Shown: positions 49,505 through 53,928 of the stretch, piece after piece | Numbering within the stretch: position 1 is the stretch's first letter | Layout of the letters: each line of letters begins with the position of its first letter | Origin: Desulfatiglandales bacterium | GTDB lineage: Bacteria; Desulfobacterota; DSM-4660; Desulfatiglandales; Desulfatiglandaceae | Assembly: GCA_963666345.1 (NCBI GenBank) | Contig: OY762721.1 | Span: forward strand, 160,001-224,000 | Reading direction: 5' to 3' | DNA length: 64,000 nucleotides | Program-made: the position numbers and the translations under genes | The notes under the pieces: model-generated | Told to the model about the DNA's origin: nothing | The model's input: only the letters and a program-made list of their open reading frames with translations | Databases searched by the model: none

Positions 49505-50155
49505 ATGTTTTCATTTCTATTCAAAAAAGAACATCACCTGGAATCTTTGATCTACGAATATCTTGATGCCCTGTCCGAGGCTCAGGAAAATTTCTCGCTG
49601 GCACTGCACGTGTGCGTTGAAAACCAGCATTGCGAGCAGTTTGATTTTCTCACGGAACAGACCCATAAGCTGGAATCCAAGGCGGATGACATCAGGGAAA
49701 ACATTAAATCCCTTATGTACAGAAAGGCCCTTATCCCCGACTCACGGGGTGATATTATGGGTCTGCTTGAGGCGATTGATGAGATCCCCCGTGTGTTCGA
49801 GGAAGTCCTTTACATACTCCAGCTTCAGAAACTTACCATTCCCGAATTCATACTTTTCGATTTCAACGAAATCATCCGCATAAGCCTGGAATGTTGCGAT
49901 CTGCTGGATAAGCAGGTCAGGATCTTTTTCAGGAGATCCGGAAGCATCCGGGAACTGATATCAAAGATTGATATAAATGAGAGTCATTGCGACCACATAG
50001 AGCGTCGAATCATCATGAATATCTTCAACTCCCAAACCGACCCCTTTCAAAAGCTGCAACTCAAAGAACTCATATTAAAGATAGGGGACATAGCGGATAA
50101 GGCGGAAAGCGTTTCCAGACGCGTAAACATAATCAACATGAAGAGGCGGGTCTGA
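49505..50155 (+). CDS. DUF47 / PhoU-like phosphate transport regulator
   Basis: Repeated E..AD and E..CD helices, R.DI..L...ID, I.DIADKAE. Directly upstream of the PiT gene. Confidence 0.88.
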   Translation: MFSFLFKKEHHLESLIYEYLDALSEAQENFSLALHVCVENQHCEQFDFLTEQTHKLESKADDIRENIKSLMYRKALIPDSRGDIMGLLEAIDEIPRVFEEVLYILQLQKLTIPEFILFDFNEIIRISLECCDLLDKQVRIFFRRSGSIRELISKIDINESHCDHIERRIIMNIFNSQTDPFQKLQLKELILKIGDIADKAESVSRRVNIINMKRRV

Positions 50156-51099
50156 TGTTATCTCTTTTGGGAGGTATCTTTCTGGGGTGGTCACTTGGAG
50201 CAAACGACGCATCCAATGTCTTCGGCACTGCCGTTTCCTCCAGGATGATCAAATTCTGGACCGCTGCCCTGCTCGCCTCTTTTTTTGTCATCGCCGGTGC
50301 CCTTGTATCTGGCAGGCCCGGAATCGAGACACTTAAAGGACTTACTACCTTCAAACTCGAACATGCGGTAATAATATCGATAGCCGCCGCCCTTACCGTT
50401 ACCGTCATGACGGTGATGGCCCTTCCCGTATCCGCATCTCAGGCGGTCATCGGCGGCATTCTCGGGATAGGCATCCTGAATAAACAGATTTATCTGTCAG
50501 GACTTGGAAAGGTGATCCTCTGCTGGGTCGGAACTCCCACAGGTGCCGCCCTGATTGCGTTTTGCACATACTACGCGCTGGGAAGACTGTATAATCACCT
50601 CAGGTTTACAATTTTTAACGCTGATATCCTGATCCGTACCTGCATGATAATAGCTGGGTCATACGGGGCATACGCCCTGGGAGCAAACAATGTGGCTAAT
50701 GTGACCGCTGTGTTCGTTGGTGCAGGCACATTGAGCGTCTTTAACGCGGCCCTTATAGGCGGGGCAAGCATAGCTCTCGGCATCCTGACCTTCAGCAGGC
50801 CGGTCATGGAAACCGTGGGTAGACGGCTAATCGAACTGGACCCCTTCTCCGCCCTTATCGTTGTCCTCTCACTTGCCATTACGGTACACATATACGCGCT
50901 CATAGGAGTGCCGGTCTCCACATCCCAGGCGGTAATAGGAGGAGTGCTCGGCATCGGCATAATCAAAGGAGTAAAAACCATAAGCAGGAAAACGCTGAGG
51001 CATATCCTCATTGCATGGTCCCTTACACCCATAATTGCCTGCTTTCTTTCCATGGTTATCTATTTTTCGGTACATTTGCGCTACATGCCTCATCATTAG
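50155..51099 (+). CDS. Inorganic phosphate transporter, PiT family
   Basis: GANDASN and GANNVAN repeats; PVSASQ and PVSTSQ. TGATG overlap. Confidence 0.92.
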   Translation: MLSLLGGIFLGWSLGANDASNVFGTAVSSRMIKFWTAALLASFFVIAGALVSGRPGIETLKGLTTFKLEHAVIISIAAALTVTVMTVMALPVSASQAVIGGILGIGILNKQIYLSGLGKVILCWVGTPTGAALIAFCTYYALGRLYNHLRFTIFNADILIRTCMIIAGSYGAYALGANNVANVTAVFVGAGTLSVFNAALIGGASIALGILTFSRPVMETVGRRLIELDPFSALIVVLSLAITVHIYALIGVPVSTSQAVIGGVLGIGIIKGVKTISRKTLRHILIAWSLTPIIACFLSMVIYFSVHLRYMPHH

Positions 51100-51327
51100 C
51101 GTCTTTTGAACCTTTTTTACTTCCATTTCAGCCTTTATCCGTTCCTGGGTCTTAAGGGCCCTTTTCTTTGAAAGGGCATTGGGTTACCATAAAATCGGTT
51201 GATCAGCTGTAAAGCCTTTTAGCTCTTGCCAAGATTCCGGATTATGATGTAAAGATAAAAAAGTGGGATTAAACTATATGTCTTTTTATGGTCTGCCCTA
51301 ACGCCGGAAACAAGGAGCGGCACGTAG

Positions 51328-51825
51328 ATGATCCAGAAAAAAATCTGCATGTTAGGAACATTCGCAGTCGGAAAGACAAGCATTGTAAGACGCTTTACGG
51401 AAGACATGTTTTCTGAAAAATATCTCACTACAGTTGGGGTCAAAATAGATAAAAAAGAGGTTGAACTCGACGGCGACAAGGTAATGCTGCTGCTATGGGA
51501 TCTTGAGGGTGAGGATGACTTTACCGAAATAAAACTCTCCTATCTGAGGGGGGCGTCAGGATACCTTCTCGTGGCAGACGGAACCCGCGCAGAGACTTTT
51601 GACATAGTAATTGATATCCAGAAAAAGGTGGAGGCATCACTGGGAACGCTGCCTTTTCTTTTACTCATTAACAAGTGTGACCTTACGGATCTCTGGGAGA
51701 TCGAGGAAATGGACGGCCTGCAGAGACTTTCTGAAAATGGATGGGATCTCCTTACAACAAGCGCCAAGACCGGTTTAAATGTTGACACGGCATTTGCAAA
51801 GCTGGTTGCCAGGATGATTCGATGA
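51328..51825 (+). CDS. Small Ras-superfamily (Rab-like) GTPase
   Basis: G1 GTFAVGKTS, G2 T, G3 WDLEG, G4 NKCD, G5 SAK. 165 aa. Confidence 0.92.
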   Translation: MIQKKICMLGTFAVGKTSIVRRFTEDMFSEKYLTTVGVKIDKKEVELDGDKVMLLLWDLEGEDDFTEIKLSYLRGASGYLLVADGTRAETFDIVIDIQKKVEASLGTLPFLLLINKCDLTDLWEIEEMDGLQRLSENGWDLLTTSAKTGLNVDTAFAKLVARMIR

Positions 51826-51838
51826 TAACAGGAGTAGG

Positions 51839-52924
51839 ATGAAAGGACCGGACGAAAAGATAACCGAACCTTTACTTGTCGAGCTCATGGCCGCTTTGGA
51901 CATGCTGGTATTGGAACGAATTAAGGCTTATGAGTACAGGGTACAGGGAGAGATTCCAAAATTTTTCAGACGCCTTTATCTTGATGGAGTTCCTGAAGGG
52001 GGGCCTTTCAGATTCTGGGAAATCGCGCCTTTTATAGATCATTTTCTTGAACAGGCTGAACCCTTCTGGATGCTGGGAAGCAGGGGTCGTCTCAATTCCG
52101 GCACCTGGATCGAAAACGACATAAAAGGCAACCGGTATCAGTTGAACGCATCGGCGCTCTGTATTGGGGACAGCAGGATTCTTCTAATCCAGAACCTTAG
52201 TCAGGAAAACGAAATACAATCAAAACTCAAGCAGAGCGCACGTGAGGCAATGCTGGCAAAACGGACCCTGGAGGCGCAGGTCAAGGCAAGGACAAAAGAT
52301 ATAAGAAACCGCGAAGAAGAACTTGCAGTACGCCTTTTGTCCGCGATAGAATACCGGCACGGGGACACAGGCGCTCACATACGCAGGATAGGCCTCTATG
52401 CGGAGCTGCTGGCCGCTAAACTTGGATGGACGCCTGAACAATGCTACGACATCCGTATCGCAGCCCCCCTGCACGATGTAGGCATGATAGCGATTCCTGA
52501 TTCCATTCTACTGAAACCGCGACGTCTGAATCCAGAGGAATTCGATATCCTTATGAAGCACCCTGAAATAGGTTACGAAATGCTGAAGGACTCCGAGATA
52601 CCGCTTTTGCGAATGGCAGCCGATATCGCAAGGTATCACCATGAAAAATGGGACGGCACCGGCTATCCGGAGGGCCTCTCCGGAGACGCCATTCCTCAAA
52701 GCGCGAGGCTCACAACCATATGCGATATATTTGATGCCCTTATTAATTCTCAGGTCTACAGGGGATCTTTGACGTTTGAAAGCGCAACAGAGATCATAAA
52801 AAGTGAGAGCCACCGATTCGATCCTGATATCTACAGCTGTTTTGTGGATATTTTACCGGAGATCCGGGCCATATGGTGGCAAAACCTGCAAGAGGGAAGC
52901 AAGGGGGAAAATACCGTTAAATAG
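51839..52924 (+). CDS. HD-GYP phosphodiesterase with N-terminal sensor-like domain
   Basis: H..R, LHDVG, HPEIG, HHEKWDGTGYP and DIFDAL. About 120 aa unknown N-terminal domain plus coiled-coil linker. Confidence 0.88.
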   Translation: MKGPDEKITEPLLVELMAALDMLVLERIKAYEYRVQGEIPKFFRRLYLDGVPEGGPFRFWEIAPFIDHFLEQAEPFWMLGSRGRLNSGTWIENDIKGNRYQLNASALCIGDSRILLIQNLSQENEIQSKLKQSAREAMLAKRTLEAQVKARTKDIRNREEELAVRLLSAIEYRHGDTGAHIRRIGLYAELLAAKLGWTPEQCYDIRIAAPLHDVGMIAIPDSILLKPRRLNPEEFDILMKHPEIGYEMLKDSEIPLLRMAADIARYHHEKWDGTGYPEGLSGDAIPQSARLTTICDIFDALINSQVYRGSLTFESATEIIKSESHRFDPDIYSCFVDILPEIRAIWWQNLQEGSKGENTVK

Positions 52925-52950: not shown

Positions 52951-53844
52951 CTACCAGATCACACCGCCGCTTTCAAAACGCCTTTCATAATTTCTGCGGG
53001 ATGAGTCCAGAACCTCTCGGAGACGGACAAGGTTTGCCTCCACAGATGCCTCATATGGATCGACCTCTTTTCCATGACGAGACTTGAAATGTGCCTTCAT
53101 ATACCCTGTTATATCCCCCAGTGTTTCCAGCCGCAATTTAACTACATAATCGTAAAAGCTCTGCGTCTTTTCAATCAACATAAGCTCCGAATCAAAGCCA
53201 GGAACAGATGCCTCTTCAAATTCATAAAAAAGGAGGGTAAGCTTGCTCAGATATTCAGGGTCAGCCATCTGACCCAACAGATCGCATGCTGCCAGACACT
53301 TACCTATCAGCTCTATCTCCCTGTTTCTGAATGAGATCTCAGATATCTCCCTTCCCAGTATTGTGCTGAAGATCATACTTCGGCAGTCAGAGATATCTTC
53401 ACTGCTGCGTCCTCTTTTTCCGAGATACCCTGAGAGCAGATCAGCGCTTCTTTCTTCATGACCTACCGTGTGTTTGGCGCCGGTTCCGATCATATCCCCG
53501 GCTTCCTGTATAAGCCCGGTATCATGAAAAAGGGATGAGATAAGGCCCATTTCCATATCCCTTCTTGTTACGGTTTCTCCTGAAAGTCTTGCCCCGTTCA
53601 TAACCCTTGCCATGGCAAGAAAAACAGAAAGGGTGTGCTCAGAGTTATGATACGAGGTGTTACTCTCACGGTAGCCCTCGTATTCGCCTGCAAAAAGCCT
53701 CAAAACGTCGTCAAAAACCTCTTTTACAAGGTTCATTTTCATGTCGGGATAGGCCATTTCGCACACGGACATGACCTCTGAATATATCTCACTTTCAGTA
53801 TACGGTCCGATAAGTTCTCTCAGTTCATCGTTTTCAAGATTCAT
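52951..53844 (-). CDS. HD-domain metal-dependent phosphohydrolase
   Basis: YHNSEHT, FHDTG, HEERS and DLLGQMAD..Y..KL..LFYEF. Start ATG 53844 after GGAG (track start 53874). Confidence 0.82.
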   Translation of the reverse strand: MNLENDELRELIGPYTESEIYSEVMSVCEMAYPDMKMNLVKEVFDDVLRLFAGEYEGYRESNTSYHNSEHTLSVFLAMARVMNGARLSGETVTRRDMEMGLISSLFHDTGLIQEAGDMIGTGAKHTVGHEERSADLLSGYLGKRGRSSEDISDCRSMIFSTILGREISEISFRNREIELIGKCLAACDLLGQMADPEYLSKLTLLFYEFEEASVPGFDSELMLIEKTQSFYDYVVKLRLETLGDITGYMKAHFKSRHGKEVDPYEASVEANLVRLREVLDSSRRNYERRFESGGVIW

Positions 53845-53928
53845 CAATAAATCTCCACCGGCACAATGTTCCATGAAAAGCGTGTTGAATCATCTTCCGC
53901 ATGTCAGTAAAGAGCCGTCCGGCTTCAA

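Follow-up and report, generated by a model that had tools for sequence, protein, structure and literature searches.

The Rup proteins are the closest bacterial relatives of the eukaryotic Ras and Rab proteins. Their Group 1 was defined by comparative genomics (Wuichet and Søgaard-Andersen, Genome Biol Evol 2014/15; PMC4316618), and the Group 1 loci were described as having the order DUFY > DUFX(:OmpA) > Rup > signalling output, in which DUFY is a coiled-coil protein and DUFX often contains a transmembrane segment and an OmpA domain. According to the same source, the Group 1 GTPases lack the glutamine of the G3 motif, their outputs are "typically" GGDEF/EAL proteins or histidine kinases, and the N-terminal region of the output contains an invariant glutamine, which, as the authors suggested, could act in trans for the Gln-less GTPase (PMC4316618). 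No Rup GTPase had been characterised according to the 2014 paper (PMC4316618), and our literature searches identified no experimental study of Rup GTPases. Here, we describe a pair of adjacent genes at positions 51328 to 52924 of a 64,000-nucleotide stretch of contig OY762721.1 from a Desulfatiglandales bacterium (assembly GCA_963666345.1), hereafter called the window. The 2 genes encode a Rab-like small GTPase and an HD-GYP domain protein, and they probably, although by no means certainly, belong to the Group 1 Rup system of small-GTPase signalling, as a reduced member with two genes only.

The pair consists of 2 open reading frames (ORFs) on the forward strand, located at 51328..51825 (165 amino acids) and 51839..52924 (361 amino acids). 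The first ORF encodes the GTPase, which is of the Group 1 Rup type and matched the Pfam family Ras (E-value 3e-33, residues 5 to 163 of 165) and the NCBIfam family small_GTP (3e-19); a match to Pfam Roc (4e-22, residues 5 to 118) overlapped the stronger Ras match. The translation contains the motifs GTFAVGKT (G1), YLTTVGV (switch I), WDLEGE (G3), NKCD (G4), and SAK (G5), with a glutamate in G3 where Ras has Gln61, and the C-terminus (ARMIR) is devoid of cysteine. A preliminary description of the window had reported a standalone GTPase of 165 amino acids with the motifs G1 to G5, the segments YLTTVGV and DLEGE and no C-terminal cysteine, located 13 nucleotides upstream of an HD-GYP gene. The translation and the Pfam and NCBIfam matches show this account to be accurate, and the distance was confirmed, since the TGA stop codon of the GTPase gene is at 51823-51825 and the ATG start codon of the HD-GYP gene is at 51839. 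The best matches to solved structures were almost all Rab proteins, including Rab8A (4e-27), with Rab10, Rab1, and Ypt proteins among the other top matches in PDB (E-values from about 1e-27 to 1e-22, Rab8A included), and Rab is thereby the closest match in terms of sequence only. In an alignment of 38 GTPases, the protein encoded in the window retained all invariant columns and 20 of the 22 near-invariant columns.

The HD-GYP domain of the second protein was identified by a match to Pfam HD_5 (1.5e-35; residues 178 to 331, corresponding to 52370..52831), and its best solved relative was PmGH (PDB 4MCW; 2e-45 over the catalytic domain). Given the E-values of these matches, the identification of the ORFs and domains is far beyond chance. 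Residues 1 to 135 matched no Pfam family even at E ≤ 10, in agreement with the preliminary description, which had called the N-terminal domain unrecognised, and a word-based homologue search with these residues returned the self match only. An exhaustive phmmer search against 1.84 billion cluster representatives yielded 540 homologous representatives at E ≤ 1e-3 and 116 at E ≤ 1e-10. As judged from these homologues, the domain, which we refer to as NTDOM (approximately residues 8 to 135; 51860..52243, forward strand), is a real and widespread family.

According to the Pfam matches, NTDOM is placed at the N-terminus of signalling proteins or behind another region of about 130 amino acids. The outputs were counted in 111 of the best 150 phmmer matches, which were scanned against Pfam, and comprised 51 histidine kinases, 8 HD-GYP, 2 GGDEF, 2 GGDEF-EAL, and 3 SpoIIE/PP2C proteins, 1 Ser/Thr kinase (Pkinase), and 4 proteins with PAS or GAF domains only; the other 40, many of them short, had no Pfam match at all. 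Within the phylum of the window, NTDOM was also found with a sigma-54 activator and with further GGDEF outputs. The combination of NTDOM with HD-GYP is a common architecture, since NTDOM was present in 64 of the 119 closest relatives of the HD-GYP domain in the window.

Two further kinds of proteins were noted in connection with NTDOM. A second domain of about 125 amino acids, here called the X domain, with a consensus resembling SPAYL.VD..G.L..WGG.L..YG...FL.GLLP...ADIHI...WVLLLD, was located N-terminally to NTDOM in 21 of the best 150 representatives. It was identified at L056:1667-2713, L038:3076-4005, and L015:1914-2960 (reverse strand), and at the N-termini of the proteins P0042, P0043, P0055, and others. 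In other loci, the X domain was fused to Guanylate_cyc, and the gene was placed between the GTPase and NTDOM genes. Homology of the X domain to NTDOM was considered and rejected, since the hhalign probability was 0.9% and there was no detectable similarity. In addition, stand-alone NTDOM proteins of about 150 to 165 amino acids without an output domain were found in the loci L042 (3965-4426), L049, L051, and L060, and the stand-alone protein P0002 was the closest NTDOM relative of the window, with 57% identity. In acidobacterial loci, the gene for the stand-alone NTDOM protein was located upstream of DUFX and the GTPase.

A scan of the genomic surroundings, with one genome per species, confirmed 282 NTDOM loci, and the counts given here are based on the best 80. 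A gene of the same GTPase family was present on the same strand in 77 of these 80 loci, upstream of the NTDOM gene in 71 and downstream in 6. The 3 loci without a GTPase gene (L036, L072, and L076) contained only 34 to approximately 2,070 nucleotides upstream of the match, and the stretch of approximately 2,070 nucleotides was filled by a second NTDOM gene. Going by their titles, the loci represent Nostocales, Acaryochloris, Blastocatellia and other Acidobacteriota, Desulfobacterales and other "Deltaproteobacteria", Nitrospirales, and Entotheonella. The preliminary description had suggested a search for homologues of the N-terminal domain that are fused to other outputs beside Rab-like GTPases, and such homologues were found with many output types. 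Two or three genes for NTDOM-output proteins were located behind a single GTPase gene in the loci L056, L059, and L069.

The phyletic patterns of the 2 components were also similar. In a sample of 401 genomes from the phylum of the window, NTDOM was identified in 9 genomes and the GTPase, at a score of at least 232 bits, in 8 genomes, every one of which was NTDOM-positive, while the NTDOM of the ninth genome was located at a contig end. Three more genomes contained lower-scoring GTPases (132 to 148 bits) and no NTDOM. Among the 9 non-self NTDOM loci in this sample, the GTPase gene was located directly upstream in 5 and was separated by a cyclase-like gene in 1, another locus ended at a contig edge, and the remaining 2 were from genome G347, where the GTPase gene was 4.3 kb away from one of them. 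Moreover, the same 3 modules that are encoded by the 2 genes in the window were joined into a single chain, GTPase::NTDOM::HD-GYP, in 6 database proteins of 534 to 553 amino acids (P0181 and P0270 to P0274). The latter 5 were 55% to 73% identical to P0181; one of the fusions was encoded on a 1.57-Mb contig, and one had 10 member sequences. It was also noted that the contigs L034 and L035, from metagenome-assembled genomes, are titled "Klebsiella pneumoniae" and "Heliobacteriaceae" although they contain the full Rup module. The genes in L034 have the same coordinates and near-equal profile scores as those in L033, which is titled Deltaproteobacteria, and the titles of L034 and L035 have the appearance of errors in binning or naming.

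By itself, the adjacency is weak evidence, and the 2 genes in the window could be mere neighbours that are functionally unrelated. In line with this, the locus L007 from a close taxonomic relative encodes a related GTPase that is accompanied instead by an FHA protein as well as a Ser/Thr kinase that contains a domain for binding of cyclic nucleotide monophosphates (cNMP). However, such an explanation is already contradicted by the pairing, which spans several phyla and 77 of the 80 loci, the matching phyletic patterns in the 401 genomes, and the 6 natural fusion proteins, and we consider it extremely improbable. Because of this same co-occurrence, phyletic match, and natural fusions, a functional link between the GTPase and the NTDOM protein is strongly supported by the comparative sequence data.

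The surroundings of the NTDOM loci resemble the layout described for Group 1 Rup. An ORF of at least 450 amino acids was located directly upstream of the GTPase gene in 68 of the 77 loci, and all 6 of the large upstream ORFs that were scanned had a C-terminal OmpA domain. With profiles that were built from the same loci in which they were counted, 72 of the 77 GTPase loci were found to contain the DUFX N-domain and 70 to contain DUFY. The locus L057 from Acaryochloris marina fits the entry "<Rup<DUFX:OmpA<DUFY" given for that genome in Table S2 of the published study (PMC4316618). The residue following DxxG was a glutamate in 72 of 73 partner GTPases and an aspartate in the remaining one, and it is a glutamate in the window. 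From the loci of the published layout, we infer that NTDOM corresponds to the region called "N-term" in that study and that residue Q132 of the HD-GYP protein is probably its conserved glutamine (PMC4316618). The preliminary description had presented the 2 genes as a candidate module in which a GTPase controls an HD-GYP protein. Of this, the conserved functional pairing and the tie between NTDOM and the GTPase stood, whereas the idea of a GTPase/output module is not new, as it was published from genomes in 2014 as Group 1 Rup (PMC4316618). The contribution of the window is a form with two genes, which is rare, and whose HD-GYP output shows atypical residues in the active site.

To describe NTDOM further, we examined its conservation and predicted fold. 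The conserved positions in 305 NTDOM sequences included P40, F65, F69, A73, W77, S87, G88, W90, A104, A106, L115, Q132, and R135, while the conserved E103 is replaced by an asparagine in the window. An AlphaFold2 model inferred from an alignment of 87 sequences had a predicted local distance difference test score (pLDDT) of 89.3, a predicted template modelling score (pTM) of 0.79, and the topology H-EE-H-H-EEE-H, with residues 121 to 134 as the C-terminal helix; for comparison, the PAS fold consists of an antiparallel sheet of five strands with flanking helices. The top PDB matches obtained with Foldseek were LOV/PAS domains with E-values of about 1e-3 and TM-scores of 0.4 to 0.5. All 50 entries listed by VIA-align were PAS, LOV, or related sensor folds of the phytochrome and Cache type, with Z-scores of 5.5 to 8.0, where values below 8 may, according to the tool, reflect merely a common arrangement. 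For this reason, we refer to the modelled fold as PAS-like rather than as a proven member of the PAS family. A Roadblock or longin fold was considered for NTDOM and was not found among the 50 VIA-align rows or the Foldseek rows listed, although a distant kinship is still possible. Models and conservation further suggest a long signalling helix of approximately residues 121 to 170 (52199..52348, forward strand), which includes Q132 and connects NTDOM to the HD-GYP domain; the equivalent linker helix in the model of the fusion protein was 50 residues long (305 to 354).

As to the role of NTDOM, its architecture points to an effector or a sensor. The many types of outputs, and the presence of several NTDOM outputs behind one GTPase, speak for an effector, and the arrangement with NTDOM at the N-terminus, followed by the long helix and then the output domain, speaks for a sensor-like role. 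By analogy, the same succession of N-cap, PAS core, long helix, and output is seen in PAS-regulated kinases and cyclases, and one switch with several outputs resembles the manner in which small GTPases use their effectors.

A different role for NTDOM would be that of a GTPase-activating protein (GAP), which provides its conserved glutamine in trans to a GTPase without Gln61, such that the output reports on the engagement of the GAP. The loss of the G3 glutamine from all of the 73 partner GTPases is in line with this role, as is Q132 itself, which is conserved in 92% of the 305 NTDOM sequences and kept in the window, and so is the invariant glutamine of the Group 1 Rup output N-terminal regions (PMC4316618). 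Furthermore, NTDOM is the sole candidate regulator left in the locus if DUFX and DUFY, which were not found, are disregarded. However, Q132 is located in the helix after the PAS core, within the predicted linker helix, where a conserved glutamine can be structural, and the glutamate in G3 is itself conserved rather than randomly lost, which suggests that the GTPase has its own chemistry. The presence of several NTDOM outputs behind one GTPase also suits effectors better. To our knowledge, PAS-like domains are not used as GAP folds. Taken together, we consider a GAP function unlikely, and it is also compatible with the reading of NTDOM as an effector domain, since some effectors are GAPs as well.

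Several observations weigh against the assignment of the pair to the Group 1 Rup system as a regulated GTPase-effector module. First, Nostocales and Acidobacteriota prevail among the 80 loci, so that these do not count as independent observations. Second, the single-chain model of the fusion P0181 had a pTM of only 0.63 with a disordered linker at residues 173 to 193, and it was uninformative on docking, although the individual domains were confidently predicted. Third, a search of the whole genome (4.16 Mb, 96.7% complete) with the profile for the DUFX N-domain gave no match at E ≤ 1, and the DUFY profile gave just one coiled-coil-like match of 17.7 bits, while the full DUFX profile matched generic OmpA domains only. 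No gene for DUFX or DUFY adjoins the GTPase gene in the window, where genes for PhoU_div and PHO4 are located instead. The DUFX profile detected DUFX directly upstream of the GTPase gene in all 5 of the same-phylum loci with upstream sequence, including L014, in which the output is an NTDOM-HD-GYP protein as in the window, and the DUFY profile detected DUFY in another same-phylum locus, L013. Reduced forms were rare among the 80 loci and were represented by L038, with unrelated upstream genes, and L043, with a coiled-coil gene only. As the genome search revealed neither DUFX nor DUFY, the switch encoded in the window may be without an upstream regulator.

The GTPase itself also deviates from the other members. 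In a quick and weakly supported IQ-TREE phylogeny of 46 rows, it fell into a group of 32 rows that included sequences from Cyanobacteria (A. marina among them) and Acidobacteriota, with a value of 90 in the Shimodaira-Hasegawa-like approximate likelihood ratio test (SH-aLRT) for a group that was not starred, but its terminal branch was 0.89 in length as compared to a median of 0.24. In addition, L006 and L007, from the taxonomically nearest genomes (same family as the genome of the window), contain a GTPase paralogue with a catalytic glutamine and other neighbours. These GTPases, located at L006:1501-1998 (genome G005) and L007:1501-2016 (genome G004), are approximately 50% identical to the GTPase in the window, retain the glutamine in the motif WD[VI]YGQD, and have no neighbouring NTDOM gene. 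The GTPase gene in L007 is flanked by the genes for a zinc-ribbon/FHA protein and the Ser/Thr kinase with the cNMP-binding domain, and the L006 and L007 GTPases may belong to a different Rup-derived module.

The HD-GYP domain's active site provides another set of deviations. All of the 8 metal ligands are retained, with residues identical to H189, H221, D222, H250, H276, H277, and D305 of PmGH and an aspartate for E185, resulting in D-T-G, which falls within the accepted E/D-T-G signature of the trinuclear subgroup. The GYP and HHExxDGxGYP motifs are also retained. However, H174, M216, R228, and Q305 in the window stand for D183, K225, G237, and R314 in PmGH; H174 is located just upstream of the Pfam HD_5 envelope. 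We compared these positions in 120 related HD-GYP domains, comprising the 119 closest relatives and the one in the window. The histidine at the D183 position was found in 6 of the 120 domains, as compared to aspartate in 113, while the other 3 residues were unique to the window: methionine at the K225 position (lysine in 117), arginine at the G237 position, giving KPR for KPG (glycine in 98), and glutamine at the R314 position, giving QxYR for RxY[K/R] (arginine in 118). In PmGH, the D183A and K225A substitutions are reported to abolish the activity, whereas R314A does not substantially reduce it (PMC4159591). Both R314/K317 and the KPG motif are described as contacting the guanines of cyclic di-GMP (c-di-GMP; bioRxiv 10.1101/2021.11.05.467447). 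Because 4 conserved active-site residues are changed, c-di-GMP phosphodiesterase activity cannot be asserted, and the HD-GYP domain may be impaired, may use the histidine as a general acid, or may prefer another nucleotide.

These deviations could also mean that the pair is a remnant, either decaying or put to another use, which has lost DUFX and DUFY and in which the HD-GYP protein is dead as a phosphodiesterase and serves as a cyclic-dinucleotide binder or a scaffold, or has no function. The failure to find DUFX and DUFY in the genome, as opposed to the DUFX kept in 5 of 5 same-phylum loci with upstream sequence, the substitutions at the positions that correspond to D183, K225, and R314, 2 of which inactivate PmGH when changed to alanine, and the long branch of the GTPase are what such a history would leave behind. 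Database and metagenome searches identified no relatives in the range of about 57% to 100% identity, and when metagenomes were scanned for proteins closely related to the HD-GYP protein, the matches were limited to one identical copy (L112) and to generic HD-GYP proteins that did not exceed 52% identity. Since no near kin were found, purifying selection, including that on the altered residues M216, H174, and Q305, cannot be judged. On the other hand, both ORFs are intact and have good ribosome-binding sites, the GTPase has kept its invariant and most of its near-invariant residues, and the metal ligands and GYP have been retained. The change of Asp/Lys to His/Met is a paired change, in which the histidine could be a general acid. 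Contigs from RNA libraries match both genes, albeit as a weak indication, and the second reduced locus, L038, shows that a module without adjacent DUFX and DUFY is not unique. All in all, decay or repurposing is a doubtful explanation, and we maintain the view that the pair is a reduced member of the Group 1 Rup system.

The mechanism that we propose for this reduced member takes the observed gene pair and motifs, the family membership by sequence, the co-occurrence, the fusions, and the fold as its starting point. The Rab-like GTPase, with a glutamate for the catalytic glutamine, would cycle between a GTP-bound and a GDP-bound form, and we infer that it binds directly, in one of the nucleotide states, to the PAS-like NTDOM of the protein encoded 13 nucleotides downstream. 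NTDOM would then relay the signal via the long helix to the HD-GYP domain and turn its function on or off, this function presumably being the hydrolysis or the binding of a cyclic dinucleotide; the nucleotide dependence, the direction of the regulation, and the substrate are deductions from the architecture. Under this model, the HD-GYP protein would be an effector of the GTPase and NTDOM the sensor on the side of the effector. In the canonical loci, it would be DUFX:OmpA, a membrane protein, and DUFY, a coiled-coil protein, that set the nucleotide state of the GTPase. Because DUFX and DUFY were not found, the switch in the window would have to depend on the GTPase's own rates of exchange and hydrolysis, on NTDOM, or on a factor that is not linked to the locus. 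An even bolder idea, prompted by the lack of matches for DUFX and DUFY, is that the GTPase runs freely and senses the pool of guanine nucleotides (GTP/GDP, possibly (p)ppGpp), on which it reports via the PAS-like domain to an HD-GYP enzyme with a substrate other than c-di-GMP. Another substrate is conceivable because of the change of Asp/Lys to His/Met and of the guanine-contacting arginine to glutamine. This idea is speculative and rather improbable; if true, the 2 proteins would form a self-contained bacterial G-protein circuit with a new substrate specificity.

The pair has the layout of a two-gene operon, because of the arrangement of the spacer and the ribosome-binding sites and the convergent gene downstream. 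The sequence upstream of the GTPase gene contains the Shine-Dalgarno sequence AAGGAG (51312..51317), and the 13-nucleotide spacer (51826..51838) contains a second stop codon, TAA, and the sequence AGGAG (51830-51834), all on the forward strand as read directly from the sequence. A sigma-70-like promoter candidate, TTGAAA-16 nt-TAAAAT, was located upstream of the GTPase gene (51168..51195, forward strand) and fits 10 of 12 consensus positions, but the region contained 12 such sites compared to 7.8 expected. Likewise, a terminator-like hairpin with a weak match to the consensus follows the PHO4 gene (51147..51161, forward strand), and 6 terminator-like sites were observed in the scanned region compared to 5.6 expected from shuffled sequences. 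The promoter and terminator matches near the GTPase gene thus occur at background frequency and are merely suggestive. One 151-nucleotide contig from the metatranscriptome run X1 was identical to the window over 51717-51863, which spans the spacer and extends 25 nucleotides into the HD-GYP gene, and a contig from the RNA-library run X2 covered 52464-52686 in the HD-GYP gene with 5 differences in 223 nucleotides. These runs consist of contigs with small shares, in which carry-over of DNA is possible and gaps in coverage carry no meaning, and the 2 contigs are a weak hint of expression.

As for the neighbouring genes, the genes for PhoU_div (DUF47) and a PHO4/Pit-type phosphate transporter are located directly upstream of the GTPase gene (49505-51099, forward strand), with the stop codon of the first overlapping the start codon of the second, and they represent an ordinary Pit accessory/transporter pair. 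The Pfam matches downstream of the HD-GYP gene identified a convergent gene with an HD domain, a gene for a holin-like membrane protein, and a Sir2 gene. The convergent gene (52951-53874, reverse strand) encodes a protein of 307 amino acids with an HD motif and falls outside the conserved Rup neighbourhood. Only sub-threshold matches were obtained for this protein, to the NCBIfam Npun_R2479-family HD metalloprotein (58 bits; cut-off 400) and to Pfam PDEase_I (E-value 0.014), and it may be another candidate nucleotide phosphohydrolase beside the HD-GYP protein.

The canonical loci encode a large, peptidoglycan-anchored membrane protein, which makes the biochemistry hard. The pair in the window and the natural fusions offer soluble parts with an enzymatic read-out, which makes the question of nucleotide-dependent binding and of activation or inhibition directly testable and provides a convenient system for the first biochemistry on a Rup GTPase. 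For the partner domain, the PAS-like fold and the very strong co-occurrence signal provide material for the definition of a new domain family.

When compared to known systems, the pair shares with the Group 1 Rup system the eukaryote-like motifs G1 to G5 with loss of the G3 glutamine, the adjacent output protein whose unassigned N-terminal region has a conserved glutamine, the use of c-di-GMP enzymes and kinases as outputs, and the occurrence in Cyanobacteria and other taxa (PMC4316618). Moreover, the search based on NTDOM returned loci of exactly the published layout (PMC4316618). It differs in that neither the locus nor, by the profiles, the genome was found to contain DUFX:OmpA or DUFY, in the unusual active-site residues of the HD-GYP domain, and in having an HD-GYP output at all, since the outputs named in the text of the paper are GGDEF/EAL fusions and histidine kinases (PMC4316618).

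Both MglA/MglB and the actinobacterial conservon (CvnA-D) resemble the pair in that a prokaryotic GTPase of the Ras superfamily is coupled to a regulator of its own and, in the case of the conservon, to a histidine kinase as well. Unlike in MglA/MglB, no Roadblock/MglB (Robl_LC7) gene adjoins the GTPase gene in the window, and the GTPase also differs from the Roco proteins, in which a Roc GTPase is joined to COR and usually to LRRs, in consisting of a G domain alone, of 165 amino acids, with no fusion to COR; the Pfam matches of the neighbouring genes thereby confirm the preliminary description, which had noted no adjacent MglB/roadblock or COR partner. The sole Robl_LC7 match in the genome (G000:C1:3948769-3949005) is located approximately 3.7 Mb away beside a different GTPase. 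In this region (G000:C1:3948769-3949723; L002, L111), the Robl_LC7 ORF is directly upstream of the gene for an MglA-like GTPase of 210 amino acids, which scored only 28.6 bits on the Rup profile, and the 2 genes constitute a separate MglB/MglA pair.

The eukaryotic Rab proteins are similar in providing the best sequence matches in PDB and in the principle that one switch serves several effectors, but the GTPase in the window has no prenylation cysteine and a glutamate for the catalytic glutamine, and it is paired with the PAS-like domain of a signalling enzyme from bacteria. With PmGH, a trinuclear-iron HD-GYP c-di-GMP phosphodiesterase, the HD-GYP domain shares the metal ligands and the motif, whereas D183/K225 are replaced by His/Met, G237 by Arg, and R314 by Gln, and the N-terminal regulatory domains are not alike. 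Finally, NTDOM resembles the PAS/LOV sensors of kinases, cyclases, and phosphodiesterases in its modelled fold and in its place before a long helix and an output domain. It differs from them in that it matches no PAS model in Pfam and in that its proposed input would be a protein, the GTPase, rather than a small ligand or light.

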